Shown here piece after piece: positions 1,168 to 16,135 of a stretch of DNA of 16,370 bases. The stretch lies in UHGV virus genome UHGV-1639282, one strand, 5' to 3'. The position numbers and the translations under genes are program-made. The stretch is from a virus. The notes beneath the pieces are model-generated. The model did no database searches, was not told the origin of the DNA, and saw only the letters and a program-made list of their open reading frames with translations. Position 1 is the stretch's first letter; every line of letters starts with the position of its first letter.

Positions 1168-1527
1168 TCACCCTTTCTTCATCAACTCGCGTTTAATTTC
1201 ATCGGTACGCATCGTGACATCGGCAGCTGTGATCGCCTCGTTAAGTTTCACGATGTCCTCGATTTCCTGCGGTGTCTTCTCCGCAAGATGGAAAATAGCA
1301 GCACGAATCACATCAGAGCGGGTGAATTTCTCGAAGCGAGGGATGAACTTCATCATCTCCAGCAGTTCGAAGTATTCGTCCTCCAGTGACATTGTGCGGC
1401 TTTTAATTTTCTCTTTGCCACGAGTCGGGCGTCCCTGTGGTCTGACTGGTTGGCGCAAAGGAGTTGTGTTCTTAGCCGGTGCATCAGGCTCTTTGCGCTT
1501 TGCTAGGTCACCCATTTTCATGGACAT
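1168..1527 (-). CDS. Small basic protein (119 aa), possible ParG-like partner of the ParA-like ATPase
   Basis: Start ATG overlaps the upstream gene's stop (TAATG at 1525-1529). The N-terminal ~45 residues are Lys/Arg/Pro-rich and look disordered (KRKEPDAPAKNTTPLRQPVRPQGRPTRGKEKIKSR). The C-terminal part (KFTRSDVIRAAIFHLAEK) looks like a strand-helix unit. The function is inferred from gene context only. Confidence 0.45.
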   Translation of the reverse strand: MSMKMGDLAKRKEPDAPAKNTTPLRQPVRPQGRPTRGKEKIKSRTMSLEDEYFELLEMMKFIPRFEKFTRSDVIRAAIFHLAEKTPQEIEDIVKLNEAITAADVTMRTDEIKRELMKKG

Positions 1528-2195
1528 TATTCTTCTTCCTCCAGACTCAACAGATAATCTACAAATTCTTCAAACTCGGCTTCCGCCTTTTTGTCGCGCT
1601 CGCTACCGGTCATTTCAAAGATAGAACGACCAGACTCTTCCGCATCATCATAGACGTTGCGGTTATATAGATTGACTGGCGCAGACTCGATGCCAAACGT
1701 CTCAACAATCTCTTTAGCCGCCAAAATGCGAGACACTTGTGATGGCAAAGCCGGGCACTGGTTCATGACCGCGCGGACCTTCACTTTATCGTTCACATTA
1801 CGAACATTGTCGATAATAGGATCGATGTCACGCAGAGATTTCAAATCACGACGCTTAGGACGAAGCGGGATAATGATAACGTCGGCCATCAGCATCGCTT
1901 GTCGCTGAATTTCGGAGTCAAAGCCACCAGCATCTACCACTACATACTCAGCTCTACCCTGAAGCGATTTTAGGTGCTTAATGATGTCATCCTGAACGTA
2001 TGCAAAAGGAATCAGCTCAAGGTCTTCGTTCTGTCGACGGTCTTCACACCAGCTTGTTGTCGTGCGCTGAATATCTATATCAGTGATATAAACCTTCTTC
2101 TTCTTTTTGACTTTCAGGCAAACGGCAATTTGCTGGGCAACAGTGGATTTGCCAGGCCCGCCCTTTGTGCCGCCAACCACAAAGATCTTGGTCAT
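1527..2195 (-). CDS. ParA/Soj/MinD-family ATPase with deviant Walker A (222 aa)
   Basis: N-terminus MTKIFVVGGTKGGPGKSTVAQQIA contains the deviant Walker A KGGxGK[ST]. A VVVDAGG motif follows, and the size matches small type-Ib partition ATPases. The protein ends in an acidic tail (LSLEEEE). ATG at 2195-2193 with AAGGGA ~9 nt upstream. Confidence 0.8.
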   Translation of the reverse strand: MTKIFVVGGTKGGPGKSTVAQQIAVCLKVKKKKKVYITDIDIQRTTTSWCEDRRQNEDLELIPFAYVQDDIIKHLKSLQGRAEYVVVDAGGFDSEIQRQAMLMADVIIIPLRPKRRDLKSLRDIDPIIDNVRNVNDKVKVRAVMNQCPALPSQVSRILAAKEIVETFGIESAPVNLYNRNVYDDAEESGRSIFEMTGSERDKKAEAEFEEFVDYLLSLEEEE

Positions 2196-2514: not shown

Positions 2515-2784
2515 ATGTCCGCACTGAAAAAGCAGCGCATCGATTTGAGATTAACCGATGACGATAAAAGCATCATCGAGGAAGCTGCCGCAATGTCTAA
2601 CCAGAGCATTACCCAGTTCATGGTTAGCAGTGCATCCGAACGTGCCGTGAAGGTGATAGAGCAACACCGTAGACTGGTTCTAAGTGAAGAGTCCTGGAAT
2701 CTGGTTATGGACGCTATAAGCAATCCTCCGGCACCGAACGACAAGCTGAAACGAGCTGCCAATCGTCTGAAAAGCATGGAGTAA
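2515..2784 (+). CDS. ataR: DUF1778-type RHH antitoxin (AtaR/TacA family)
   Basis: 89 aa: MSALKKQRIDLRLTDDDKSIIEEAAAMSNQSITQFMVSSASERAVKVIEQHRRLVLSEESW. It closely resembles AtaR/TacA sequences as I recall them, and it sits 7 nt upstream of a GNAT toxin gene. ATG with AGGGGG SD. Confidence 0.88.
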   Translation: MSALKKQRIDLRLTDDDKSIIEEAAAMSNQSITQFMVSSASERAVKVIEQHRRLVLSEESWNLVMDAISNPPAPNDKLKRAANRLKSME

Positions 2785-2791
2785 TTTACTC

Positions 2792-3313
2792 GTGAGCAAT
2801 ACGACGATCGAGATTTTCTCTGGAGAGAACGATTATGATCTAAACGGTTTTGATTGCGGCGAAGAGTCACTAAACGCATTTTTGACCAACCACTTAAAAA
2901 GACAGCATGAAGGAAAAATTCTTCGCGCTTATGTGCTTTGCACTAAAGAAGAAATACCAAAGGTATTAGGTTATTACACTTTGTCAGGCAGCTGCTTTGA
3001 GAAAGAAACCTTACCTTCAAAGAGTCAGCAAAAGAAAGTGCCTTATCGGAATGTCCCAAGTATCACTTTAGGCAGACTGGCTTTGGACAAATCTCTTCAA
3101 GGTCATGGGCTTGGCTCAATGCTTGTAACACATGCAATGCGCGTTGTGTACAATGCATCTCTTGCTGTAGGCATTCATGGACTTTTCGTTGAGGCGTTAA
3201 ATGACAAAGCCAAGGCGTTTTATAAAAGTTTAGGCTTTATCCAGCTGGTTGGTAACAACGAGCGTTCTTTGTTCTATCCTACAAAATCTATCGAAAAATT
3301 GTTCGAAGAATAA
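2792..3313 (+). CDS. ataT: GNAT-family acetyltransferase toxin (AtaT/TacT family, aminoacyl-tRNA acetylating)
   Basis: 173 aa, GTG start with GGAG upstream. Contains the GNAT core LQGHGLGSMLVTHAMRVVYNASLAVGIHGLFVEALNDKAKAFYKSLGF and the N-terminal DYDLNGFDCGEESLNAFL segment typical of AtaT/TacT. Classic antitoxin-then-toxin order. Confidence 0.88.
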   Translation: MSNTTIEIFSGENDYDLNGFDCGEESLNAFLTNHLKRQHEGKILRAYVLCTKEEIPKVLGYYTLSGSCFEKETLPSKSQQKKVPYRNVPSITLGRLALDKSLQGHGLGSMLVTHAMRVVYNASLAVGIHGLFVEALNDKAKAFYKSLGFIQLVGNNERSLFYPTKSIEKLFEE

Positions 3314-3561: not shown

Positions 3562-3733
3562 TCACCACTTTCACTGTGTTTTGAAGTCGTTTTCTGTCTT
3601 CCTGTTTTGCCTTCTCTTCCATTGCTCGTCGCGCCGCATTCCCGCCCATCGTGTAAGCGCCGACAAGAACGAAAAGAACGGCAGCCAGCGTAATCAAAGC
3701 AACTTTTAGCTTTGTCATCAGGCTGCCTAGCAT
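3482..3733 (-). CDS. Putative i-spanin (Rz-like): N-terminal TM helix plus charged helical periplasmic domain
   Basis: 83 aa with TM segment LKVALITLAAVLFVLVGAYTM followed by a charged helical region (RRAMEEKAKQEDRKRLQ). The ATG is 1 nt after the stop of the upstream hydrolase-like gene. It is short for an Rz protein, so the call is tentative. Confidence 0.5.
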   Translation of the reverse strand: MLGSLMTKLKVALITLAAVLFVLVGAYTMGGNAARRAMEEKAKQEDRKRLQNTVKVVNETSSKIRQKDASAVHRELYDKWVRH

Positions 3734-3734
3734 A

Positions 3735-4427
3735 TTAGACCATCCCTTTCTGGTGTTTTCTTACCTGCGACCAGGCAATGAATCCTGCCACAACAATAGT
3801 GGCAATACCGAAGATGATGCGTACTGTATCCCCGCTAGAGATATGACCTTGTGCTTTATCCATAGCAGCGGAAACCTGCGGCATAACATCGGCCAGCTGA
3901 GCCAGACCAATACCTGCTGTAACAGTTGCGCCTGCGGTTTCTTTAGTTACAGGAACAGCCTTCACGGTTTTCACCGGCTTAACAACGCCAGCTCGACGCA
4001 GACCTTCCTCAATAACTTCTGCCGCATACCAGGTGTTCAGCGTTTTTAGCGGGCCTCGGCCATTCTCGTGGCGAATGATTGCCTCAACCAAAGGTCGAAG
4101 GATGTCGTAATCATGCAGATCGATGATCATGTCTGCGGTTACACCAACGGCTTTAGACACCTCATTAATGTAGGCGTCAGTATTGTTTTCATTCGGCGGT
4201 GCCCAGCGTTCAATAACTTCACGAATGGTATCGATACTTGTGCCGTCTTTTGCGCGACGTTTATCGTGGTAGGTAATTAGAGTCACCGCCAGCGCACGAA
4301 TCCCCCAAACAGGGTCTTTAAACGTGCAAAAGCGCGGTTCGTCTGGATTCGCAACCAGACCTTGCCACGGTGATCCTTTATCAAGATTACCGGGGTTATT
4401 ATTACGAATGCCTCTCGGGGTCTTCAT
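3735..4427 (-). CDS. Putative endolysin-like protein with C-terminal transmembrane anchor (230 aa from ATG 4427; the ORF track's 4454 start is GTG)
   Basis: Starts MKTPRGIRNNNPGNL with a strong SD (CAGGAGA) 8-9 nt upstream of the ATG at 4427-4425. The C-terminus has a Lys/Val/Thr-rich linker and a hydrophobic helix IIFGIATIVVAGFIAWS. The N-terminal motif is reminiscent of phage lytic-enzyme families, but I cannot confirm the family without a search. The lysis role is inferred mainly from the adjacent spanin pair. Confidence 0.45.
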   Translation of the reverse strand: MKTPRGIRNNNPGNLDKGSPWQGLVANPDEPRFCTFKDPVWGIRALAVTLITYHDKRRAKDGTSIDTIREVIERWAPPNENNTDAYINEVSKAVGVTADMIIDLHDYDILRPLVEAIIRHENGRGPLKTLNTWYAAEVIEEGLRRAGVVKPVKTVKAVPVTKETAGATVTAGIGLAQLADVMPQVSAAMDKAQGHISSGDTVRIIFGIATIVVAGFIAWSQVRKHQKGMV

Positions 4428-4440
4428 CCTTGATCTCCTG

Positions 4441-4764
4441 TTATTGCAGTCCACTTTTTACGCCATACGCGGCTAACCCCAAAAGCAGTGCGGTAATAAT
4501 GAACGACGTTATTTTAGAAACAATGCCGCCAAAGAACCCACTTGAGATGGAATCTAACCGGTTAAGGAGTTTGTCCAGATTGGAGTGTTGAATACTATGT
4601 TGCGCCGGGGTCATATCACCAAAGTAGGTTTTCAGCTGATCATTGACCTCCTGGCCAATTTCTTCACGTAGCTCTTTACCTAATTTGCCAACAACCTCCC
4701 GAGCAACGATCGCGGCAATACGCTCAACTTGCTCTGTTGTAACGCCCGCCATCTCGTTCGACAT
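4441..4764 (-). CDS. Small membrane protein, possible holin or lysis regulator (107 aa from the ATG at 4764, which has a GGAGGA SD)
   Basis: The ORF track starts at 4776, but the in-frame ATG at 4764-4762 has GGAGGA 6 nt upstream. There is a soluble ~85-aa N-terminal region and a single C-terminal TM helix (ITSFIITALLLGLAAYGV). Its position immediately upstream of the hydrolase-like gene suggests a holin role, but the topology is atypical. Confidence 0.4.
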   Translation of the reverse strand: MSNEMAGVTTEQVERIAAIVAREVVGKLGKELREEIGQEVNDQLKTYFGDMTPAQHSIQHSNLDKLLNRLDSISSGFFGGIVSKITSFIITALLLGLAAYGVKSGLQ

Positions 4765-5086: not shown

Positions 5087-5695
5087 TCAGTTATACAGAT
5101 TTCTATTTATTACCGGTACTCTGCCATTTACGCTAAAACTATGGCCGCCATTAAGTTGGTTTACGAATATCGAGCTAACAGTATTTCCATATGCCGCATA
5201 TCCATAAACCATTGTCATGGCTCCGCCCGGTACTGGAACAGCGGACACATTCGCATATGTTGGGATTATCGCTGGAGGGTAATCAAAAACATGCTCTCCA
5301 GAGCTGTTCCACTCCGTATTATTAAGAAAGGTAAATGAAAGTGGGATATTTGCCGTATTATAGATTTCCTCCCCTTGTGCATTGAAAAAACTCATGCCCC
5401 AAGTTTCTTTTTTGGCTATACCTTTCGAAAATACGTATATCGTGGCACTAGAGTCGCTACCCCGACCTCCGAAACTGTAAATCACCTGGTTGTTACGCAC
5501 TATTCTGTTGGCTATTAATGAAACAGCTTTCGAATAGACAACAAAAATAATCGGTGAACGATCTGGAGATATTTTGGTGTTAAACTCTGTCCCGCCGGAC
5601 AAAGAAACAACCTGCTTTCTCTGAAAAACGATAGGAGACAAAGAAGGAGACATCCAGACCTTCCCGTCAGATCGATATATCTTGCTTCCGTACAT
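5087..5695 (-). CDS. Hypothetical protein (202 aa), Ser/Gly/Asn/Tyr-rich, no signal peptide recognised
   Basis: Complete ORF with ATG at 5695-5693 overlapping the stop of the upstream ORF (TAATG). Composition suggests a beta-rich fold. No family recognised. GC looks somewhat lower than the tail genes. Confidence 0.55.
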   Translation of the reverse strand: MYGSKIYRSDGKVWMSPSLSPIVFQRKQVVSLSGGTEFNTKISPDRSPIIFVVYSKAVSLIANRIVRNNQVIYSFGGRGSDSSATIYVFSKGIAKKETWGMSFFNAQGEEIYNTANIPLSFTFLNNTEWNSSGEHVFDYPPAIIPTYANVSAVPVPGGAMTMVYGYAAYGNTVSSIFVNQLNGGHSFSVNGRVPVINRNLYN

Positions 5696-5949
5696 TATTT
5701 TTGAAAAACCAATATGTTTAAATTACCACTAGCTCCAGACCACGAAATGGTATTTCCAGAAACCGTAAGACTTGTGTACTTTCCATTGGTTACGTCCATT
5801 ATGTAATAGTCGATTCCCAATCCCGCCTCAACCTCATATGTTCTACTTCCTGAACCAGAGGGAGTAAAATAATCGAGGTAATAAACAGGGGCCAACGCAT
5901 TGACCATCTCCTGTCTTGATGGCGACCAAACCTGTGCACCATAGCTCAT
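5695..5949 (-). CDS. Hypothetical protein (84 aa), translationally coupled to the downstream 202-aa ORF
   Basis: ATG at 5949-5947 preceded by AAGGA. The stop TAA overlaps the next start by one base. No recognisable motifs. Confidence 0.5.
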   Translation of the reverse strand: MSYGAQVWSPSRQEMVNALAPVYYLDYFTPSGSGSRTYEVEAGLGIDYYIMDVTNGKYTSLTVSGNTISWSGASGNLNILVFQK

Positions 5950-6086: not shown

Positions 6087-6116
6087 AAGGCCCGCTATCG
6101 GGCCTTAATTTTTATT
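6087..6116 (+). terminator. Intrinsic-terminator-like hairpin AAGGCCCG-CTAT-CGGGCCTT followed by AATTTTTATT (T-tract on the plus strand)
   Basis: Perfect 8-bp GC-rich stem with 4-nt loop and a downstream T-run on the plus strand. It lies immediately beyond the tfa stop (6112-6114). On the minus strand it has an A-tract before it and no U-tract after, so it is best oriented to stop plus-strand (antisense) transcription, or it acts as a weak bidirectional terminator. Confidence 0.4.
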
Positions 6117-6639
6117 CAGGCTTTTGTGGCCATTCAGGATTTGCCGTATCCACACGGCTGACCAGAACACTGTAGCGTTCCCATGCTTCCAGTCGTGTGC
6201 GCTCCTCGTCTGTTGCCATATTCAGCCTGACAGCGCGTTCCAGCGGCTGGATGACTGATTCAGCTTCGGAAAGCAATGCGGCCTTTTGTGATTCGGCCTG
6301 TTGTTGTTGCTCGTCTGCCGTATAAATCCGTTTAACCACAGCTCCGTCCCTGAACATCCATTTACCCGAAATATCAGCCCGGCGATTTGCTGTAATGTCA
6401 GCAACCTCAACCACACTTAAACCTTCTGGATTTATTGTAGATACGTCTTTATTTATAGCCACAATAATTCCATCTGATGTGTAAGCAATTTTTATAGTGT
6501 CATCCTGGAAGTTCTTTTGTTCCTCATACCAGTTTTTACCGTCTTCAGAATACAACCAGACAACACCAAATTGTCGCGTCAATTCATATTGTTCAACAGT
6601 TTTTGGATTACCTGATCTGATGTTTTTTAAATGCTGCAT
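6112..6639 (-). CDS. tfa: Tail fiber assembly protein (Tfa-like chaperone)
   Basis: 175 aa. C-terminal region [25 protein letters not shown] matches the conserved end of lambda-type Tfa proteins as I recall them. Its start is 2 nt after the side tail fiber stop. Confidence 0.82.
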
Positions 6640-6641
6640 AA

Positions 6642-9600
6642 TTAAATACTTCCCGCGTTATACCATGTACCATTGATACAATACTGCACCGGCCTTGCCT
6701 GAGTTGTATCAATAAGTTCGTCCTTATTTGAGTTAATTGAGGCAGTAACAACATAACCAGATTTATCGTTCCATCCAGGACCATTCCATGTTTGCACAGA
6801 CGATTTTGTACCTAATCGAATACCTGTAATAAATCGTGAATTACATTCTGCTTTGGTATATGCCCCAACATCTCCCGCAGATGGTTTGCGTGTTGTAGTA
6901 TAAAATTCCGACCAGTCGGCTTCAAAACCATAACCGTCACGCGCAGAACGATAATAAATACCGCCGTTCTTATAATTCACGCGGAACTGTACAGCAGGGC
7001 AGCTCCCCGTATTCATATTGAAGTGGAGGATTAATGTCGATGCTCCACTGATATCTGCATCATAAACACCGCTATTCCAGTTCCAGCCAACAGCTTTATC
7101 ATTTGCAACCCTGCTTCCTGTTTGCCCTAAAGCAAATGCAGGCTGCTGGTTTTTCGTGTTGTAGTCTCGTCGCCAGCCAGGAGCATAAGCATCACCATGA
7201 TTAATATAAGTGAATTGTGCATTAGTAGTTCCGCCACCGCTGGAAGTGCTCGGGGTGGTTACACGGATGGTCATGGCACCTTTATTACCCATAACCTCAA
7301 TAACGCAACCAGCAAGGTGAATAAGTCCACATCCGGTGTCAGTAATAATTTTATTATTGCCGTATGACCATGAGCATTTACACATCCAGTATGGATGATT
7401 GAAGGCCCACTGAGATTCCAGCCATTCAATAAATTGCGCCGTCGTCCAGTTTCCTGCACCTGTGCTAATAGAGCCATGAAAAGAGCGGCAAGCACCTATT
7501 GTTTGCGTAAATTTATCTTTGTTTGGAATATCTGCGCCGTTCTGGTTTTTCTGTAATGCTCCTGCGGCTAATTCTACAGTTTGCTCAAGATTTAAATCTG
7601 CCGCCGTTAGCTCAATATTTTTAGAACCGTCAAACGACACCCCATTTATAGTTCTAGCGGTTTGTAACTTGGTCGCTGTAGCCGCGTTACCGGATGTATT
7701 CTGATTACCCGCAACGTTAACACCAGGTAAATTAATATTCGCAGTGCCATCGAAGCTAACACCACCGATGGTTCTTGCTGTCGCAAGTTTTGTCGCGGTA
7801 GCAGCATTCCCCGTGGTGTTCTGGTTACCAGCAATGTTTACACCCGGCAGGTTGATATTGGCGGAGCCATCGAATGACACGCCGCCTATTGTGCGTGCTG
7901 TTTGCAGTTTTGTTGCAGTTGCAGCATTACCGTTCAAACTACCATTGATGCCGCCAGTAACATTGAGTCCATTACCAATGGACACAGCACCGCTGGTATT
8001 ATTAATTGTAATAGGTCGCAAACCGTTCCATGAACCTAATGTGTCTCCTGATGCTGTTAGCATGAAATATGTGTTCGATCCATCATTACGGATAAAGAAC
8101 CCAAAGCTACCGTAAGCAATGCGGAAACCATTTGCATATTTTGAAATGATCTCGCCAGAAGATGTCAAACCTCCAGATAATGTACCACCGGTAAGAGGTA
8201 ATGCACCGACATCAGCCGCAGTAGGCTTGTTTTTAGTGTTATAAGAACGACGCCAGCCTGGCGCATAATCACTCCCATTGTACACATAAATAAATTCCGC
8301 ATTATTAACACCACCATGACCTGATGTTGTTGTCGTTGTAACACGAATAGTGTAGTGGCTTGTTGACTTATTACTAAACACCTCAATCACGGAACCAGAT
8401 AGATCGATCCTACCGCAACCAGTGTCGTCTATATAATTATTGTTGGCGTAAGCCCATGAGCACCGTGCAATCCAATATTTGTTTGAAAATGCACCCTGAT
8501 TATTTAGCCAAGTTATAAATTGAGCAGTCGTAAATGGCGTTCCGTTACCACTATTTAACCATCCAGCGGCAGCGGTTGGCGCGTTTATATCAGCCGGCTG
8601 AGGCATAAATCCAGTCGTGTAAACCTGCTCCCAACCACTTTCAAAACCATAGCCATCGCGAGATGAACGATAAAACAACCCACCATTTTTATAGTGAGCC
8701 TTAATTTGAAGCGTACGGCAACTACCTACACCAGTATAAAAGTTGGCAAGAATATAACTGTCGCCCGTTCTAGTTACATTATAAGCACCAGATTCAGCAT
8801 TCCACGGCACGCCGCCATCAGCATCAGCATATGACCCTGTTGCTCTTCTTGCGAAAGCGGCAACATGCGCGGCGGTTAAAGTGATATCAGTAGAGCCATC
8901 AAATGGAACACCGGATATTTTTCTTGCAGTCTGAAGTTTCGTAGCTGTATCAGAGTTCCCCTTAACCCCTTTTGGAGAATTAAGTGGTGTATTGATCGTC
9001 ACTTCACCTGTTGCGTTATTTACTGCAAATGGTCGAAGACCGTTCCAGCCACCGTACTGGTCGCCTTTATCAGTCATGAGCAAGTAAGTATTTGCTCCAT
9101 CATTTCGCCATATGACACCGTAATCGCCAGCAATCATCCTTAACGCATTCTGACTACGGACAATAACTTCATCATTAGCGTAAACCTTATTACCGCTAAT
9201 ATCCGCATTTGTGAGGAGTGCGTGCGAACTATAGAATCCTCTACCGTTGGAGAAATCAAGTATAGTATCAGCGTCCACGCATTCTGTTCTAGGGTCTGTA
9301 GCGCCCCATTTGTAAGTTGATTGCCCGATAACATAATCGGCAGATGGTACAACAACAGATAAGCCTTCTTCTACATATACAGCAATAGGAAACGCTTCAC
9401 CTTCAACATAGAACACAGAACACAGATCATCCGCTTTTCTACCCATCATGATAGAATGAATAGCACGCTCATTTGCGTGATAGATATGAAACATTCCATA
9501 AGCATAATGTCCCCTGTCAGTCCAACCGCCAGGCATGACAAAACCATTGAACTCACAGTTGTTCATCCTATCATTGGCAGTCTTTGAACTTGTACTTATC

Positions 9601-11297
9601 GTCACCCTGGATGCTAATTCACTGCTGAATCCAGAAGAACGACGAATAACCACAGGGTAAAACTTACCAGCTTCAACTCCTGCGGGCGCATTCACTGTTG
9701 AATACTTCATTCCTCGTTTAGCGGCCATATCAGTCTTGCTGGCAGCATTAATGTTGCTCAGGAAGCGGCCCTTGTCTGGGATATCAGCGCCATTCTGATT
9801 CTTCGCCAATCGGCTATTCGCATTGTCATTGGCTGCTTTTACTGCCTTTGGCGTTGCCGCCAGCGTTTCAGACGTGCTGTTGGTCGCACTGCTGAGCTGT
9901 ACTATCCCCTTTTTCGTCGTGCTCGCATCCTCAAGCGCCACAGCGGATGCAATATCCTCTGCCCGTTTTGCCGCTGTCTCGGCGCGCGTTGCCGCGGATT
10001 CTGCCGTACTTTTGCTCTGTGCTGCCGCCGTCGCACTGCCAGCTGCCTCTGTCGCCTTCGTGGATGCCGTCGTGGCGCTGCCCTTCGCTGCTGACGCTTG
10101 TCTGGTCGCCTCATCTTTTGAAGCAGACGCAGATGATGCCGATGACGCCGCCGAACTGGCTGACGATGCGGCAGCCGTTTTTGAGGATTCTGCGCTGGTT
10201 TCCGACGCTTTCGCGTTCGTTTCGGATGTCTTCGCTGCGGAAGCAGACCTCGCTGCTGCGCTGGCCTGTTCAGTGGCTTCGCCAGCCTTCGTTGTGGCTG
10301 TTGAAGCAGACGATGCGGCGCTTTCTGCCGATTTTCCGGCGGCGGTGGCACTGGCTGAGGCCTGCCCGGCACTTGTTGACGCGGCACTGGCAGACGACGC
10401 AGCCGCTGTTTTTGAGCCTGCCGCAGCTGAGGCGCTCTGTCCCGCTGCCGTCTCAGAAGACTTAGCGTTCGTCTCGGACGTTTTTGCCGCCTTCGCGGAA
10501 TTTGCTGCCGCCGTTGCCGAGGAAGCTGCGCTACTGGCGCTCAAGGATGCGTTCGTTTCTGATGATTTCGCTGCCTCTTTTGAGGCCGCCGCATCCCGGG
10601 CTGAGGTGGCAGCTTCTGACGCTTTCGTGGTCGCGGTGGATGCAGAAGTGGCTGCTGATTGTTGTGACGCTGCGGCATTCGTTTCAGATTTTTTCGCAGC
10701 AGTTGCACTCGCACTTGCGGCACTTTGTGAGGATGCCGCATCGGATGCACTTTGAGACGCTTGAGAGGCTTTTTCTCCAGCGGTATTGGCGCTTTCTGCT
10801 GCTGCGGCAGCACTGGCCGCCGCCTCACGAGCTTTGTCGCCAGCAGCATCAATCGCGTCAGTGTTATTTTTATACCACTCAACGTTTTCGTTGTGCTCGT
10901 TGACGATCTGCATTAGCGGCTTAACGGTTACTTCTGTACCGTCTTCACGCTCGATTGTCACCTCATCCAGCGCAGTCAACCAACTGCGCATGGACTTGGA
11001 ATCAGCCGACATACGCGACATTAGCGCAGTAAAGCGCGCGCTAAACTGTGTTAAGTCGCCTTCATAGGTCGTAATGATTCGGCACGGAACCTCAGACTGA
11101 GTTTCGCCGGTATAAGGTTCTGAGAGAACAATGTTCGTATCACTGGTTACGCGCTTGATCTCATACAGCTTATTGTCGGGGCCAATGACGATCATCCCCG
11201 GCAACACACCATTAGCTGTTACGTTCCAGGCTGTCCCTGCCCCAACCAGAGTATTGCTACCCTGTGTAAATGTGATAGTACCTTCCCTGTACCACAT
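6642..11297 (-). CDS. Side tail fiber protein (Stf-like), 1551 aa, mosaic
   Basis: ATG with AAGGAG 8 nt upstream. Long Ala/Ser/Thr-rich shaft containing [24 protein letters not shown] and [42 protein letters not shown], which I recall as near-identical to lambda Stf. Phage tail fibre repeats ([29 protein letters not shown]) in four copies. Duplicated distal modules, followed by tfa. Confidence 0.9.
7590..7945 (-). repeat. Three tandem ~120-bp coding repeats (phage tail fibre repeat, ~40 aa each) inside stf; a fourth isolated copy near 8880-8960
   Basis: Protein repeats [40 protein letters not shown] x3 with matching DNA periodicity visible at 7600-7940. The isolated copy reads [29 protein letters not shown]. 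Boundaries are approximate. Confidence 0.6.
9950..10850 (-). repeat. Low-complexity GC-rich (GCN-codon) Ala/Ser/Thr-rich shaft-coding region of stf
   Basis: About 300 aa dominated by A/S/T with recurring KTSETNA/SASAA motifs. Its lack of stops in several frames produces the long spurious overlapping ORFs on both strands in the supplied track. Boundaries are approximate. Confidence 0.6.
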
Positions 11298-11390: not shown

Positions 11391-14300
11391 TCACAGACGG
11401 CCAATTCTTACTCGTAGGACGTTGTTATCGTCATAAACGTCAATCCGCTGACCATTTATAACCAATCGCCCATTGCCGCCGCTATTACCGTTGATCTCAA
11501 GCGTTCCATTTTTGCCGAACCGCCATCCAGATCTACCGCTAACAAAATTGGTAGATTGCAGATCGCCTACTTTTGCATTGGTGATTGTGCCATCCTTGAT
11601 ATACGCTCCATTCATATAGGCGATACTGTTTTCGATAACAAATGGCGTTGTGATCTTCCCGTTAACAGAGTTGACCAAACCAAACCTGTCCGCCTGAACC
11701 AAAAACTGAGATAGCCCAGTGGTGTCAATACCAAGCGCAATACCGGCAACATACTTCTGCCCTCCGCTCGTTGAAGTCTCCATTTTCAACGTCCACGCGG
11801 TTGATACTTTTTTGTTGGTATCAGCAATAGCTGTTGCCTGCTGTTGAATTGTCGCGGTATTTCCATCCACCTCTGCTTTCAGAGTATCGATTCGCCCACT
11901 CAGAGCATTATCTGCCTGCGTTCTCGCTGTCGTTTCAGTTGTTACCGCCGCGGAAATGTTGGCTGCCGTTTGAGACTCTAAGTTTGTGATTTGAGTCGCC
12001 AATGCAGCATCTTGCTCTGTACGCGTTTTCGTTTCGGTTGCTACAGCCGCTTTAATATCCTCTTTGTATTGAGAGGTCAGCTTGGTGATCTGAGACGACA
12101 ACGCCGAGTCAGCATCAGTTCGAGCCTGCGTTTCAACTGCAACGGCCGCACTAATATCTTTCGCTGTCTGTGCTTTTAAACTTGAAACCTCTTTTGTTAA
12201 AGCGGTATCACCATCTGCACGAGCCGTTGTTTCTCTGGCAAGAGACGCCTCGAGATCATTAGCTTTTGCTGTAAGAGACGTAATCTGGGTAGACAATGCA
12301 CTATCGGCATCAGTCCTTGCTTTTGTCTCTACAGCAACCGCTGCGGCAATATCAGTTCCGGTTTGTGCTCGCAGGCTGTTAATTTCTCGTGAGAGCGCCT
12401 GGTCAGCACTTGCTCTGGCCTCCTGCTCCTGAGTGATGGCAGCGGATATATCACCGTCAACCTTTGACTGAAGCTGGTTTATTTGTTTGGCTAACGCAGA
12501 GTCCCCGCTTGCTCGGGCCTCCTGCTCACTACGTATTGCAGCAGAAATATCATCATCAACCTTTGCCTGAAGTTGGGTGATCTGGCTTGCCAGAGCCGAA
12601 TCTTCCGTTGCTCGGGCTTCTTGCTCTTCCTTAATAGCTGCGACGATATCGTTGCTTACTTTCGACTCAAGCTGAGTGATCTGTGTCGTCAGAGCTTCAT
12701 CGGCAGATGTACGAGCCTCCTGCTCTGTACTAATCGCCGCGCTGATATCTCCTTCAAACTTAGATTGCAGCTGAGTGACACGCTTTGCCAACGCTTCATC
12801 GCCATCGGCACGAGCGGTGGACTCTTCCAGAATACTGGCCTTAATGTCTTCGCCAATTTCTACGCGAATTTCCTCAACCTTCGTGGCCATTGCAGACATA
12901 TCATCAGCAAAGGTTTTCTGTGTTGTTGCGATCTTCGCGTTATTGACCATCTGCTTGTGCTGGTCTTCATCTTGACGAAGAGCCAGGTCAATATTTGTTT
13001 TGGCTAACGCCTCAATGTTCGTAGTCAGTTCTGCACTGGTACGATCGACCTCTGCAACCGTCTTTTTCATTTCTTCAACGGCAGCGGAGCTTTCCTCTAC
13101 CGTTGACTGCAACACTTCCAGTTGTTTAGCGTTTGCAGCATCGCCTTCAACACGAGCCTCGCTTTCCTTAGCAATAAGAGCCGCCGCTTCATCTCTTGCA
13201 GCCTTTATTGCCTCGACTGTATTAGCGAGAGCTTTATCGTGTTCAGATACGGTGTTTTCGATTTCAACAATTGCAGCATCAGTAGCATCAATTTTTTCAA
13301 ACGCTTCATTGACCTTGTCGATCGTTGCCGAAACCTCACCTTTAAGCTCGGTTTGTGCGTTCTCCAAAGCATCGCTACGCTCGTTGAATTTTATTTCAAA
13401 ATCCGCGAGGTTATCGCTGAACTGCTTATCTAATTCAGCTATATCTTCCTTAACGTCGTTTACCGCCCCCTCCAAAGATTCGACGCTCTGGTTGATATGC
13501 TCATTTAACTCGTCAACTGCTTCTTGAGAGGCTTTGCTGTTGATGTCCTCAAGCAGAGCCTGACCAAGCTCGGAAGATGTAATTTTGCCAGTCAGGAACG
13601 ACAGTACATCGCGAGTTGTCGCCTCTGTACCCAAGTTTGAGTTCGGAGGACTTAACATACCTCGCTTGTTCGATGCTCGAACCCAGTAATACCACGTTTC
13701 GCTATCCCCAAGACCAGCATGTGTAAAGGTGGTGCTTGCAGACTCTGCGATCAGTTTCGCCGTATCCAGATTGTTGGTCTGGGATGCGTAAACATTAATG
13801 TGATCAAGGTCTACCGAATCTGGATTAACCCAATTCAGTATCACATTACGATAGTCTCCAACGGCCGTTAATGACGTTGGGGAATCCGGCGGTGTCATTG
13901 TGCCCAACACCTGATAAACGGCACTGATAATCTCTGTTTTTTTACCGTTGAATGAAACCGCATACAGCTGGAAGTCGTAGCGTCCATTCTCCGCGACATT
14001 AACGATTTCGTATTGCTCTTCGGTTACACGCGCCGATTGCCAGTTCGATACATTGTTTTCATCAGAACGTCGCCAACTGATCCAATACTCTGGAGATTTC
14101 CCTTCCCATGTTGCAGTCAGTTTTACTGACAGGTTGCCCGGGCTTGAGAGATAAGTCCCTTCAGTGATTTGCAGATTAGATGGCTTGGAGTAAGTTGGGT
14201 CCAATACCGTCGTATTCTGCGGGATCAGCGTTGCACCATTGTCGATTGCCTCATATTTAGACGGATTGTTCTCAACAGCGGTGATGTCAAAGCTACCCGG

Positions 14301-16118
14301 CGTTTCCCCCTGCGCGATGTTAACGATGCGAACGCGCATAGGTTCGAGGTCTGGTTCTGTAATAGTCCAGACGCCGTTCAAAACAGGCGTTTCAGCCGAA
14401 GACAGGGCTTTTGAAAACGTAACTTTTGTTATATTTTCGCCAGTTTCAAGAACATCGCGTTCAACGATTTTGCCTTCCTGATTCAGTATTCGAATAAAGC
14501 AGCCGCCTTTGGCTAACGACACAGGCGCATCGAGTGTGACGCTGTTTTTGGTAAACGCCACAATTCGACCTGAGTTACGTTTGCCTGCGCGATATTTGTT
14601 CTGAATCAGAACGGTTTCACCAGGCATCAGAAATGACGCGTCTAAGCCGGCAGTAAATGTAATTACATCCGACTCCATTCTGGCGGTATATAAAAGCCAC
14701 AAACCAACTCGGTGAGCCTGCCCTCGGCTTGTACAGCCAAATGCTACGACTTCTGTTTTACGCTCACCATAACGGCGCATTGCGTCCTGATCTTCGACGT
14801 ACTCGATGTTTTGCTTATAACCGTCCTCCTTGTTGTTGTAGGTTACGAGCGCAACGGATGGGCGATCTTTACGCGCAGAACCTTTATAGGTAAACAATCC
14901 ATCTTTGACGTTAGAGTTGGTAAACATCATTACCGGATCTGATGGGCTATCCTGCATGATGTTAACCATCCCACCAGCCCAAAACACCATGCCGCGGAAT
15001 GCTCCGGCAATATCCTGAATTAGCCGGTATGCGTCCTGTCGACTGGTGATCTGTGTATTGATTGCAAAGCGTTTCTCTTTGCCACCAAAGCCATCATCGA
15101 CCTCTTCGTCACAATATCGACCAATCTGGTACAACTGGCCAAGGTCAATCATAGATTCCGACACATACTGACCAAGGCCATATCGAGCATTGGTCAGCAA
15201 ATCAAAGAGAATCCACGCGGGGTTCGAAGAAGACAACAGCTTAAAAGTGCCATCCCATACACCATCATAAGTGTTGCTGGCCTCGTTGTAGTTTGACGGC
15301 ACGCGAATTTTTAATCCACGTACCAAATACGAACGAGATGGCATGGTGCTACCAAACTGCTCAGAATTAACCTTCAGACCCACCAGCACAGAGTTTGGGT
15401 AGTTCATCGGTGTATCTACAATCTCACCTATTGAGTCCACCCATGTATCGTTATAGAGATACTGGCTGCTGTTATCATCGGTAATACGGACCACACGAAC
15501 CTTGTATGCTCGTCCAGGCTTAGGCAGCTTCAGCTCATAGCTACGGTAATAAACGCCGGTCTTCTTTGCTGTTAGCTTAATGCCAACGCTTTTTTCACCT
15601 TCAGCGACCACATCTACAAATGTTGAGTCGCCATTTGCTATCTGGAACTTGTACTCAACAGTCGTACCGTTCGTGTCACCAGTTTTTTTATCTATGCTTC
15701 GCAAAGAAGGAAACTTCATGATGACACGAACCCGATCAGCTTCATCGTTATCGATTGAAACCGTTACATAATGTGTTTTTTTTAACTGGATATTGACGGA
15801 TTTAGGCGTTTCAACGAAATCAAAGCCAGACATTGGAGTCTGGTCTTGTGAACCGTCGCGAAAATCCCATGTGATTCCGCTGAAGTTGGAGGAACCGTCT
15901 TCATTTACAATCGGCAGATCGTCGATAAAAATAGATCTTGCGCCATTTACTAAGCCGCCAATTACCCCTTCCCCAAGAAGATCGAGGATAGCGGCCATTG
16001 CACGAGAATTTACGGTATCGTCGGCTTCAACCGGTGTACGGCTGGAGCTTTTGCTGCTTTTTTTACCACCCGCACCGGCAATAAACAGCGGTAGCTTTTT
16101 CTTCTTGAACTGTTCCAT
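11391..16118 (-). CDS. J-like tail tip / host specificity (central fiber) protein with extended coiled coil (~1575 aa from ATG 16118; the ORF track's 16124 start is TTG)
   Basis: The N-terminal ~650 aa carry lambda J-like motifs (AFGCTSRGQAHRVGLWLL, PAWILFDLLTNARYGLGQY) and the C-terminus has KYVAGIALGI...QFLVQADRFGL, also J-like. Between them is a ~600-aa alpha-helical region that includes ~10 tandem 33-aa repeats. The ATG at 16118-16116 has AAGGA upstream. Confidence 0.9.
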   Translation of the reverse strand: MEQFKKKKLPLFIAGAGGKKSSKSSSRTPVEADDTVNSRAMAAILDLLGEGVIGGLVNGARSIFIDDLPIVNEDGSSNFSGITWDFRDGSQDQTPMSGFDFVETPKSVNIQLKKTHYVTVSIDNDEADRVRVIMKFPSLRSIDKKTGDTNGTTVEYKFQIANGDSTFVDVVAEGEKSVGIKLTAKKTGVYYRSYELKLPKPGRAYKVRVVRITDDNSSQYLYNDTWVDSIGEIVDTPMNYPNSVLVGLKVNSEQFGSTMPSRSYLVRGLKIRVPSNYNEASNTYDGVWDGTFKLLSSSNPAWILFDLLTNARYGLGQYVSESMIDLGQLYQIGRYCDEEVDDGFGGKEKRFAINTQITSRQDAYRLIQDIAGAFRGMVFWAGGMVNIMQDSPSDPVMMFTNSNVKDGLFTYKGSARKDRPSVALVTYNNKEDGYKQNIEYVEDQDAMRRYGERKTEVVAFGCTSRGQAHRVGLWLLYTARMESDVITFTAGLDASFLMPGETVLIQNKYRAGKRNSGRIVAFTKNSVTLDAPVSLAKGGCFIRILNQEGKIVERDVLETGENITKVTFSKALSSAETPVLNGVWTITEPDLEPMRVRIVNIAQGETPGSFDITAVENNPSKYEAIDNGATLIPQNTTVLDPTYSKPSNLQITEGTYLSSPGNLSVKLTATWEGKSPEYWISWRRSDENNVSNWQSARVTEEQYEIVNVAENGRYDFQLYAVSFNGKKTEIISAVYQVLGTMTPPDSPTSLTAVGDYRNVILNWVNPDSVDLDHINVYASQTNNLDTAKLIAESASTTFTHAGLGDSETWYYWVRASNKRGMLSPPNSNLGTEATTRDVLSFLTGKITSSELGQALLEDINSKASQEAVDELNEHINQSVESLEGAVNDVKEDIAELDKQFSDNLADFEIKFNERSDALENAQTELKGEVSATIDKVNEAFEKIDATDAAIVEIENTVSEHDKALANTVEAIKAARDEAAALIAKESEARVEGDAANAKQLEVLQSTVEESSAAVEEMKKTVAEVDRTSAELTTNIEALAKTNIDLALRQDEDQHKQMVNNAKIATTQKTFADDMSAMATKVEEIRVEIGEDIKASILEESTARADGDEALAKRVTQLQSKFEGDISAAISTEQEARTSADEALTTQITQLESKVSNDIVAAIKEEQEARATEDSALASQITQLQAKVDDDISAAIRSEQEARASGDSALAKQINQLQSKVDGDISAAITQEQEARASADQALSREINSLRAQTGTDIAAAVAVETKARTDADSALSTQITSLTAKANDLEASLARETTARADGDTALTKEVSSLKAQTAKDISAAVAVETQARTDADSALSSQITKLTSQYKEDIKAAVATETKTRTEQDAALATQITNLESQTAANISAAVTTETTARTQADNALSGRIDTLKAEVDGNTATIQQQATAIADTNKKVSTAWTLKMETSTSGGQKYVAGIALGIDTTGLSQFLVQADRFGLVNSVNGKITTPFVIENSIAYMNGAYIKDGTITNAKVGDLQSTNFVSGRSGWRFGKNGTLEINGNSGGNGRLVINGQRIDVYDDNNVLRVRIGRL
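11870..12870 (-). repeat. About ten imperfect tandem 99-bp repeats encoding 33-aa coiled-coil units (consensus approx. DISAAIxxEQEARxxADxALxxQITQLQSKVxx) within the J-like gene
   Basis: The protein-level repeat is obvious in the translation. A DNA periodicity of ~99 bp is seen in recurring motifs such as GCTCGGGCCTCCTGCTC at ~12415, ~12513, ~12612 and ~12711. Boundaries are approximate. Confidence 0.65.
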
Positions 16119-16135
16119 GTTCAAAAAATCCTTGT

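Follow-up and report, generated by a model that had tools for sequence, protein, structure and literature searches.

The side tail fiber locus

The analyzed window is a 16,370-nt stretch of the virus genome UHGV-1639282. Its ORF at 6642–11297 on the minus strand encodes a side tail fiber (Stf) of 1551 amino acids. This identity had been proposed in the initial annotation and is supported. The gene lies downstream of gpJ next to tfa, and its product has an SSU5-type N-terminal domain. The locus order is a gpJ-like ORF with Phage_Tail_Tip and FNIII-A_GpJ domains (11391–16124), stf, and then tfa (6112–6639), whose 175-aa product is a Caudo_TAP tail fiber assembly protein (PF02413, E = 6e-38). This is the layout of lambdoid Stf and Tfa loci, with stf directly downstream of gpJ and the Caudo_TAP gene next. 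As annotated, there is a single Tfa with no second one, and the fiber is about twice as long as lambda Stf. The gpJ protein is 99.7% identical to that of Escherichia phage CMS-2020a, 99.6% to that of Cyrano and 73.6% to that of Salmonella phage SSU5, and synteny with plasmids of about 110 kb extends across lysis, TacAT and ParA genes. Both the N-terminal domain and the genomic context identify the element that carries this stf as an SSU5-like phage-plasmid of E. coli. The features of stf and tfa are listed below in window coordinates (aa, residues of Stf).

10848–11297, minus strand: Stf N-terminal attachment domain, aa 1–150; 99–100% identical in the nearest plasmid relatives, 82% in SSU5 Stf
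9987–10847, minus strand: Ala/Ser-rich shaft, aa 151–437; low-complexity, GC 0.57–0.59
9741–9986, minus strand: Mu Sc-like segment ending in the 11-residue motif X1, aa 438–519; matches Mu S residues 91–170
9216–9740, minus strand: variable module D, aa 520–694; other modules stand here in L002, L004, L007 and L010
8973–9215, minus strand: module A1, Gp34_trimer type (PF21446), aa 695–775; 43% identical to A2
8859–8972, minus strand: tail fiber repeat T1, aa 776–813; ATKLQTAR at aa 785
8562–8858, minus strand: module B1, gp37_C-type knob (PF12604), aa 814–912; 45% identical to B2
8208–8561, minus strand: module C1, aa 913–1030; matches PDB 8JU3 residues 201–324 (E = 8e-38), 59% identical to C2
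7953–8207, minus strand: module A2, Gp34_trimer type, aa 1031–1115; matches Mu S 241–338 (5YVQ) and T4 gp34 (4UXE)
7593–7952, minus strand: three tandem tail fiber repeats T2–T4, aa 1116–1235; left crossover zone
7473–7592, minus strand: linker with the 11-residue motif X2, aa 1236–1275; the Mu S' variable region begins here (8JU3 from residue 169)
7140–7472, minus strand: module C2, aa 1276–1386; inside the 8JU3 match, 97% identical to pTB423 S
6849–7139, minus strand: module B2, gp37_C type (PF12604), aa 1387–1483; inside the 8JU3 match
6645–6848, minus strand: C-terminal tail module in single copy, aa 1484–1551; putative Tfa docking site
6355–6639, minus strand: Tfa N-terminal fiber-binding domain, codons 1–95; 98% identical to U of the P1-like plasmid pTB423
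6112–6354, minus strand: Tfa C-terminal conserved domain, codons 96–175 and stop; 96–98% identical to the type found in the SSU5-like plasmid and Mu U
6351–7847, minus strand: putative horizontally exchanged unit comprising T3–T4, X2, C2, B2, the tail and the Tfa N-domain

Module anatomy and repeats

In a BLASTP comparison with lambda orf-401, residues 1–150 gave no match, the attachment domain being of the SSU5 type. The orf-401 match (58–72%) spans residues 202–496 and extends beyond the shaft into the Sc-like segment, whose counterpart in Mu S ends at the Sc/Sv junction. A Pfam scan of the full-length protein found PF21446 with E = 9.8e-62 (207 bits against a threshold of 27) in two stretches, the first and best of which (aa 648–758) begins inside module D. 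When modules were scanned alone, D and C1 yielded no Pfam family, and B1 and B2 reached 30.1 and 24.8 bits for gp37_C (gathering threshold 22.5). B1 also matches 8JU3 residues 324–421 (E = 3e-21), and the matches of A2 to 5YVQ and 4UXE have E-values of 1e-26 and 7e-22. The tail module aligns to the C-terminus of 8JU3 and weakly to Mu S residues 434–503. AlphaFold2 monomer models from shallow alignments are unreliable, with a pLDDT of 33 for aa 1236–1551 and 37 for aa 776–1120.

The initial annotation had described three module types present twice each, and every motif quoted for them occurs exactly twice: RNDG(A/S)NTY (aa 731 and 1070), WNGLRP (751 and 1090), the 15-residue motif (869 and 1442), TAQFI(T/E)WL (924 and 1286), IRVTT (984 and 1344) and YAPGWRR(S/D)YNTKN (1011 and 1371), as does KNQNGADIP(D/N)K (499 and 1250). 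The tail fiber repeats are likewise interspersed as described, with ATKL(Q/A)TAR once at aa 785 and in three tandem copies at 1128, 1168 and 1208; TRF reports a tandem repeat of 120-nt period at 7699–7928. The conserved cysteines of module C were considered as a disulfide signature and rejected, as SSU5 and L009 carry Gly or Val at these positions.

Alignment of aa 500–1030 with aa 1031–1551 by BLASTP showed that the similarity goes well beyond short motifs. Residues 695–1027 match 1035–1387 (E = 8e-57), 814–910 match 1387–1483 at 45% identity (E = 8e-23) and 500–519 match 1251–1270 (E = 4e-4). With similarity this far above chance, the paired modules are judged to be true homologs. Their order is A-T-B-C in the first half and A-T-T-T-X-C-B-tail in the second. 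Since the copies stand in different orders, they do not represent a tandem duplication. A recent event should leave neighboring copies that keep their order and are highly similar in DNA, and no such copies were found: paired modules share 35–59% amino acid identity, and the strongest DNA similarity from one half to the other covers 54–238 nt at 65–76% identity. The earlier claim of duplicated recognition regions is therefore not supported. By their divergence, the paired modules are classed as old paralogs.

The tip and its exchange unit

The other half of that claim, a chimeric distal region, is supported. A 1497-nt megablast segment running from aa 1151 to about codon 98 of tfa is 94.3% identical to the P1-like plasmid pTB423; its ends mark the crossover points only approximately. 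Because the match includes the first ~98 tfa codons in addition to the tip, Tfa is chimeric as well. Its N-domain is 71–77% identical to the Tfa of SSU5-like relatives and 74% to Mu U, and its C-domain shares 38% with pTB423 U; the whole protein matches Mu U (5YVQ_B) with E = 2.5e-96. The pTB423 U whose N-domain is 98% identical is paired with an identical fiber tail, and fiber tail and Tfa N-domain co-vary (AH04). According to a summary of North et al. 2019, the Tfa N-domain binds the distal fiber and assembly starts there (PMC9608196). The tip and the Tfa N-domain make up one unit of about 1.5 kb that is shared with P1-like phage-plasmids and whose parts, to judge from the alignments, moved together.

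Junctions with relatives lie at aa 496–521, 784, 1134 and 1163–1185. They coincide with X1 and the T motifs, i.e. the conserved KNQNGADIP and ATKLQTAR sequences. A further junction lies at the Tfa domain boundary. Similarity resumes at aa 784, in T1, in nine of ten close relatives; backbone similarity stops at aa 1134–1185, and similarity to the P1-like plasmid begins at aa 1151. KNQNGADIP, previously placed at cassette boundaries, does serve as a marker of exchange boundaries (aa 496–521).

The distal 318 residues (aa 1234–1551) match residues 169–488 of PDB 8JU3 (Mu S-S') with E = 9e-180, which is homology over the full length of the S' variable part. Identity to Mu S' is about 88%, as estimated from the printed alignment; stf nucleotides 3593–4656 match P1 Sv' at 85%. 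The S protein of pTB423 shows 100% identity to Stf over X2 and over the tail, and 97% over C2. A cognate U/U'-type Tfa gene lies directly downstream. The distal X-C-B-tail is, on this homology, assigned to the Mu S'/P1 S' variable region. By homology to the Mu G(-) fiber, its receptor is probably the LPS core: the two Mu fibers recognize the outer and inner LPS core (PMC11821841), and host range and LPS have been described for Mu G(-)-type hosts (PMC4406740, PMC11821841). An invertible switch of the Mu G or P1 C type was not found by inspection of downstream ORFs or by a gix/cix search. The gix core AAACCNNGGTTT is absent even with one mismatch allowed, and the downstream ORFs encode neither a recombinase nor an inverted fiber segment; pTB423 has all of these elements. 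A fossil gix/cix site was also sought at the Sc/Sv-like junctions, with none found.

The internal block in the fiber family

The internal T-B-C-A block is 91–100% identical in the ten closest relatives, a biased sample consisting of the best DNA matches, and the tips of these fibers differ. Their accessory gene is tfa, a gp38-like "receptor-recognizing protein" gene, or none. The dN/dS of the block is 0.07–0.20, indicating purifying selection; for B1-C1 such selection is compatible with a binding role and a structural role alike. In the wider IMG/VR survey the block is not universal, so that its apparent constancy across the family, an impression from the biased ten, was rejected.

In 55 SSU5-type Stfs the A, B and C modules are arranged in 20 different orders. 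Thirteen fibers carry two or more C modules, 13 carry two or more B modules, and seven do so for both. Repeated modules are thus commonplace in this family. The string A-B-C-A-C-B is unique to the present Stf among the 55, AH04 having B-C-A-C-B. A B-C-A core is found in SSU5 and about half of the surveyed fibers, with variable material distal to it. Single-cassette versions exist as well: in plasmid pLAU-OXA1 a tip of the same type goes with a single B and a single C module, and Mu S' and P1 S' are further examples. In the tfa-less relatives Cyrano, L003, L005 and L006 a C-type module is the last recognizable domain; a C domain can therefore form the end of a fiber, where receptor binding by it is conceivable. 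A protein database search with B1-C1 returned only matches shorter than 435 aa, often labeled as partial proteins, which reveal module combinations but no full architecture. The tblastn coverage of plasmids was excluded from the architecture count, since paralogous modules cover the query and confound it.

Interpretation

The 1551-aa protein is a real fiber, chimeric yet an ordinary mosaic with one tip. We consider it likely that this SSU5-like Stf is a chain of reusable modules into which one P1/Mu-type tip was swapped, and that A, B and C occur twice through reuse of a small domain repertoire and not through a duplication event. The fiber would be a homotrimer built like beads on a string, with the attachment domain and the Ala/Ser-rich shaft followed by small self-contained modules: A of the Gp34_trimer type, the 40-aa tail fiber repeat T, B of the gp37_C type, and C, which has no Pfam family. 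Short conserved in-frame motifs between modules may act as linkers for homologous recombination, so that tip swaps would keep the trimer register. Tfa would dock on the single C-terminal tail and nucleate folding of the trimer at that end, so that a single chaperone would be enough whatever the number of beads upstream. Receptor binding would fall to the distal tip only, with the internal B1-C1 pair as shaft or spacer.

The initial annotation had favored two complete receptor-recognition regions, fused or duplicated in tandem and conferring two specificities or a broader host range. Each half does hold homologs of the four module types A, T, B and C, both B1 and C1 have counterparts in the solved structure of the Mu S' receptor-binding fiber, some relatives have terminal C-type modules, and B1-C1 is under purifying selection. 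We nevertheless find this reading unlikely. The copies are only 35–59% identical without long DNA similarity, B-C in one half stands against C-B in the other, and module repeats are commonplace in SSU5-type fibers. The first cassette is internal, lacks a Tfa-docking tail module, and is followed by an A module in every fiber examined, and there is no second Tfa; the block is kept at 91–100% across fibers with varying tips, contrary to expectation for a specificity determinant. It is quite improbable, too, that B1-C1 is a second, lateral binding site, e.g. one recognizing some conserved feature of LPS or ECA; its homology to receptor-binding fiber domains, the C-type tips of relatives and purifying selection could be cited in favor. 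If true, one fiber would combine a constant primary binder with an exchangeable distal tip.

That B1-C1 was once the distal end, later buried by a grafted A-T-tip segment and now only structural, is possible, though doubtful. The B-C-A core of SSU5 and about half of the surveyed fibers, with its variable distal part, would fit, as would the fibers that end in a C-like module. But an A module follows B1-C1 in every fiber examined, hence no extant fiber ends there, and B1-C1 has no tail module. As a historical claim it is compatible with the modular chain with one swapped-in tip. A mis-join of P1-like and SSU5-like plasmids of one sample at the repeated T motifs, finally, would explain both the 94% identity of the distal 1.5 kb to a P1-like plasmid and a junction inside a repeat. 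Similarity to the SSU5-like backbone returns within tfa, however, so an artifact would take two mis-joins. An exact-sequence look-up of Stf gave no match; that of Tfa did, and near-identical stf genes were located through it. Three independent assemblies contain full-length genes of 99.6–99.96% nucleotide identity, and 11 contigs (NCBI, ENA, JGI, Logan) encode exactly this chimeric Tfa. The independent assemblies refute this explanation, which we regard as extremely improbable.

Mosaicism and domain reuse in tail fibers have been known since the 1990s, reportedly from work by Haggård-Ljungquist in 1992 and Sandmeier in 1994, so the present case carries little conceptual weight. Its practical value lies in a cleanly delimited exchange unit, tip plus Tfa N-domain, whose edges are the ATKLQTAR repeats on one side and the domain boundary of Tfa on the other. 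These edges are natural splice points for engineering chimeric fibers. The unit moves between a myovirus-type (P1-like) and a siphovirus-type (SSU5-like) phage-plasmid, showing that determinants of host range pass from one family of phage-plasmids to another.

Comparison with known systems

The closest parallel for the tip is Mu S' (gp52) with Tfa U/U' (8JU3, 5YVQ), to which the distal 318 residues align end to end; Stf residues 438–516 also match Mu Sc, and A2 matches Mu S 241–338. Unlike in Mu, about 720 residues (D-A-T-B-C-A-TTT) separate the Sc-like and Sv'-like parts here, the fiber begins with an Stf attachment domain of siphovirus type, and the invertible G segment, gix core and recombinase are lacking. 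The S protein of the P1-like plasmid pTB423 also carries B twice, but it is a myovirus fiber with a different N-terminal half, is encoded in a segment that Cin can invert and that also holds an alternative Sv'/U', and has a partner whose Tfa C-domain is 38% identical.

Lambda Stf/Tfa shares the gene position downstream of gpJ with the Caudo_TAP chaperone next, the shaft (58–72% to orf-401) and the Tfa C-domain (45%), whereas the N-terminus and the distal part (orf-314) have no detectable similarity. With T4 gp34 and gp37, the common elements are two PF21446 and two PF12604 modules (4UXE, 5NXF and 5NXH match A2); only single domains are shared, and the architecture and chaperones of the long tail fiber differ. 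Mobile gp34-type fiber pseudo-domains have been catalogued (PMC12143355). The SSU5-like Stfs (SSU5, Cyrano, CMS-2020a and the ~110-kb E. coli plasmids) differ in their tips, which are an S74 intramolecular-chaperone end (SSU5, pEC16-2), or go with a gp38-like adhesin gene, or consist of a C-like end without tfa. They have the same locus downstream of gpJ, an N-terminal domain identical at 82–100% and, in many members, the B-C-A core.

Genomic context of the fibre gene

The side tail fibre gene lies between a tail-tip gene and a chaperone gene:

11391-16124, minus strand: gpJ-like tail-tip gene
6642-11297, minus strand: stf, ORF of 1551 aa
6112-6639, minus strand: tfa, 175-aa Caudo_TAP fibre assembly chaperone gene

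The gpJ protein shares 99.7% identity with its counterpart in Escherichia phage CMS-2020a, 99.6% with that in Cyrano and 73.6% with that in Salmonella phage SSU5, and ~110-kb non-mobilizable E. coli plasmids are syntenic with the entire window. Downstream of tfa follow small membrane-protein genes, a 111-aa ORF, endolysin and Rz spanin genes, a TacA/GNAT pair and ParA. The sole match of the 111-aa ORF was phrog_5093 (PHROG, unknown function); its counterparts in SSU5 and Cyrano are annotated as holin. From the gpJ identity, the synteny and this gene set, we conclude that the element is an SSU5-like phage-plasmid and that stf encodes its side tail fibre.

The TacA antitoxin (PF08681) and GNAT acetyltransferase toxin pair (2515-3313, plus strand) and ParA (1527-2195, minus strand) form its plasmid-maintenance module. 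An ORF open at the left edge (1 to ~1125, minus strand) matched KAP-family P-loop NTPases (PF07693, E 3e-6); the GC content of bases 1-1000, the region of this ORF, is only 28%, and the ORF looks like accessory or defence-type cargo adjoining the partition genes. The two small genes after tfa (5087-5949, minus strand) matched phrog_557 'outer membrane protein' and phrog_425 'membrane associated protein', and relatives also have a Cor exclusion lipoprotein at this site. Long antisense ORFs lie within the GC-rich, Ala/Ser-rich shaft of stf (9823-10755, plus strand; 4043-4726, minus strand, in the plasmid relatives L003, L006 and L008). In RefSeq the equivalent ORF is a 'hypothetical protein', and stf starts ~450 codons late in several relatives; both are likely annotation artefacts.

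An exact-sequence look-up found no record of this Stf. Full-length stf is present in three independent assemblies at 99.6-99.96% identity and the exact Tfa on 11 contigs, which excludes an assembly artefact. On the metagenome scaffold L018 (1342-5998) the same gene (99.6% nt) is split into ORFs of 932 and 582 aa; the split stems from a frameshift or from a sequencing error.

The fibre repeats modules in permuted order

The initial annotation had suggested a duplicated or chimeric receptor-binding region. Each motif that it quoted occurs exactly twice in the ORF, and ATKL(Q/A)TAR is spaced as it reported, with a single copy at aa 785 and a run of three tandem copies at aa 1128, 1168 and 1208 (TRF period 120 nt). 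The apparent duplicates are truly homologous, as BLASTP between the two halves aligned aa 695-1027 with 1035-1387 (E 8e-57), aa 814-910 with 1387-1483 (E 8e-23) and the KNQNGADIP stretch (E 4e-4). We named the modules A (Pfam Gp34_trimer domain, two copies; A2 matches Mu S residues 241-338 and T4 gp34 structures), T (the 40-aa ATKLQTAR repeat), B (Pfam gp37_C, both copies above threshold in separate scans), C (no family in the Pfam scan) and X (KNQNGADIP). Their order is A-T-B-C in the first half and A-T-T-T-X-C-B-tail in the second, a difference that had been overlooked. Amino-acid identity between copies is 43% for A, 45% for B and 59% for C, and the DNA of paired modules aligns only over stretches of 54-238 nt at 65-76%. 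Low identity and permuted order together rule out a recent tandem cassette duplication, so that 'duplicated' was wrong.

The tip and the Tfa N-domain are exchanged together

'Chimeric', on the other hand, was right. The distal 1.5 kb is a single segment, 94.3% identical to the P1-like phage-plasmid pTB423, that starts at aa 1151, within the T repeats, and ends at about tfa codon 98. Accordingly, Tfa itself is a two-domain chimera with the crossover at the domain boundary.

Identity of the Tfa domains to the pTB423 and SSU5-like/Mu types
N-domain, codons 1-95: pTB423 U, 98%; SSU5-like/Mu type, 71-77%
C-domain, codons 96-175: pTB423 U, 38%; SSU5-like/Mu type, 95-98%

The fibre tail partnered with the pTB423 U is 100% identical to ours (aa 1484-1551). 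Plasmid AH04 has the same C2-B2 modules, but its Mu S-type tail is only 38% identical, and it encodes a Tfa with a Mu U-type N-domain. These matched pairs indicate that tail and Tfa N-domain travel together. This is consistent with the published model, as summarised in PMC9608196 from North et al. (2019): the variable N-domain of Tfa initiates assembly at the distal fibre, to which it binds, and the conserved C-domain forms trimers.

A conserved internal block with variable ends

The T1-B1-C1-A2 block is present in all ten closest relatives (B1 91-100%, C1 94-97%, A2 74-99% identical), which diverge upstream (variable module D and A1) and throughout distal to about aa 1134-1185. Similarity junctions, taken from megablast segment ends and thus only approximate crossover positions, fall at:

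aa 496-521: motif X1
aa 784: ATKLQTAR of T1 (9/10 relatives)
aa 1134: T2 (6/10 relatives)
aa 1163-1185: T3

Their location fits a role for conserved in-frame motifs as recombination linkers. The fibre of pEC16-2 has an S74 intramolecular-chaperone end and a gp38-like 'receptor-recognizing protein' gene; the others carry a gp38-like gene after other ends, a C-like end without accessory gene, or a tfa gene. In the sister plasmids L001 (11125-11907), L004, L008 and L009 a ~260-aa 'receptor-recognizing protein' (gp38-like adhesin) replaces tfa. The same backbone is thus used with three or more solutions for assembly or adhesion: Tfa, an adhesin encoded separately, or an S74 intramolecular chaperone.

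We gathered 55 SSU5-type fibres (50 distinct) from IMG/VR via the N-terminal domain and used profile HMMs to score their A, B and C modules. They display 20 distinct orders with a recurring B-C-A core; at least two C modules occur in 13, at least two B in 13 and both in seven. The window string A-B-C-A-C-B was found nowhere else in this set, AH04 being B-C-A-C-B. A single-cassette version does exist: in pLAU-OXA1 a tip of the same type is combined with a single B and a single C. Short database matches contained further combinations (T-B with a C-terminal region carrying Pfam Collar, PF07484; B-tail; C-A; X-C-B-tail). Given these varied orders and multiple copies, module repetition is routine across this tail-fibre superfamily, and the window stf is a new combination in a well-known class of mosaic fibre.

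Could the internal cassette (T1-B1-C1) nevertheless be a second receptor-binding region, as had been proposed? A C-like module is the last domain in Cyrano and three plasmid relatives (L003, L005, L006), all without tfa. However, the cassette has no tail module, only one Tfa is present, an A module follows it in all fibres examined, and close relatives keep it despite varying tips. The dN/dS of the block, 0.07-0.20 (dS up to 0.56), marks it as functional rather than a decaying relic, yet is in keeping with a structural role. We therefore regard the proposal as unsupported and dual binding as quite improbable.

Comparison with phage Mu

We envisage a single trimeric fibre whose folding would begin at the C-terminus, where Tfa, bound to the lone tail, would nucleate it, and whose distal X-C-B-tail probably recognises LPS core, by analogy with Mu G(-). 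Sequence comparison among relatives revealed replacement of tip plus Tfa N-domain as one unit; host range may be altered by such recombinational replacement, not inversion. Neither a gix core nor an invertase was found in the window; its tip is fixed, whereas those of Mu and P1 are invertible. The P1-like S protein, like Stf, has B twice. Tfa matched Mu U (5YVQ chain B, E 2.5e-96). Aa 1234-1551 aligned end to end with the Mu S-S' fibre (PDB 8JU3, E 9e-180), and aa 438-516 with the Mu S constant part as far as the Sc/Sv junction; these alignments place both KNQNGADIP copies at the join between the constant and variable parts of the Mu fibre. C1 and B1 correspond to residues 201-324 and 324-421 of 8JU3, an order swapped relative to B1-C1 in the window.
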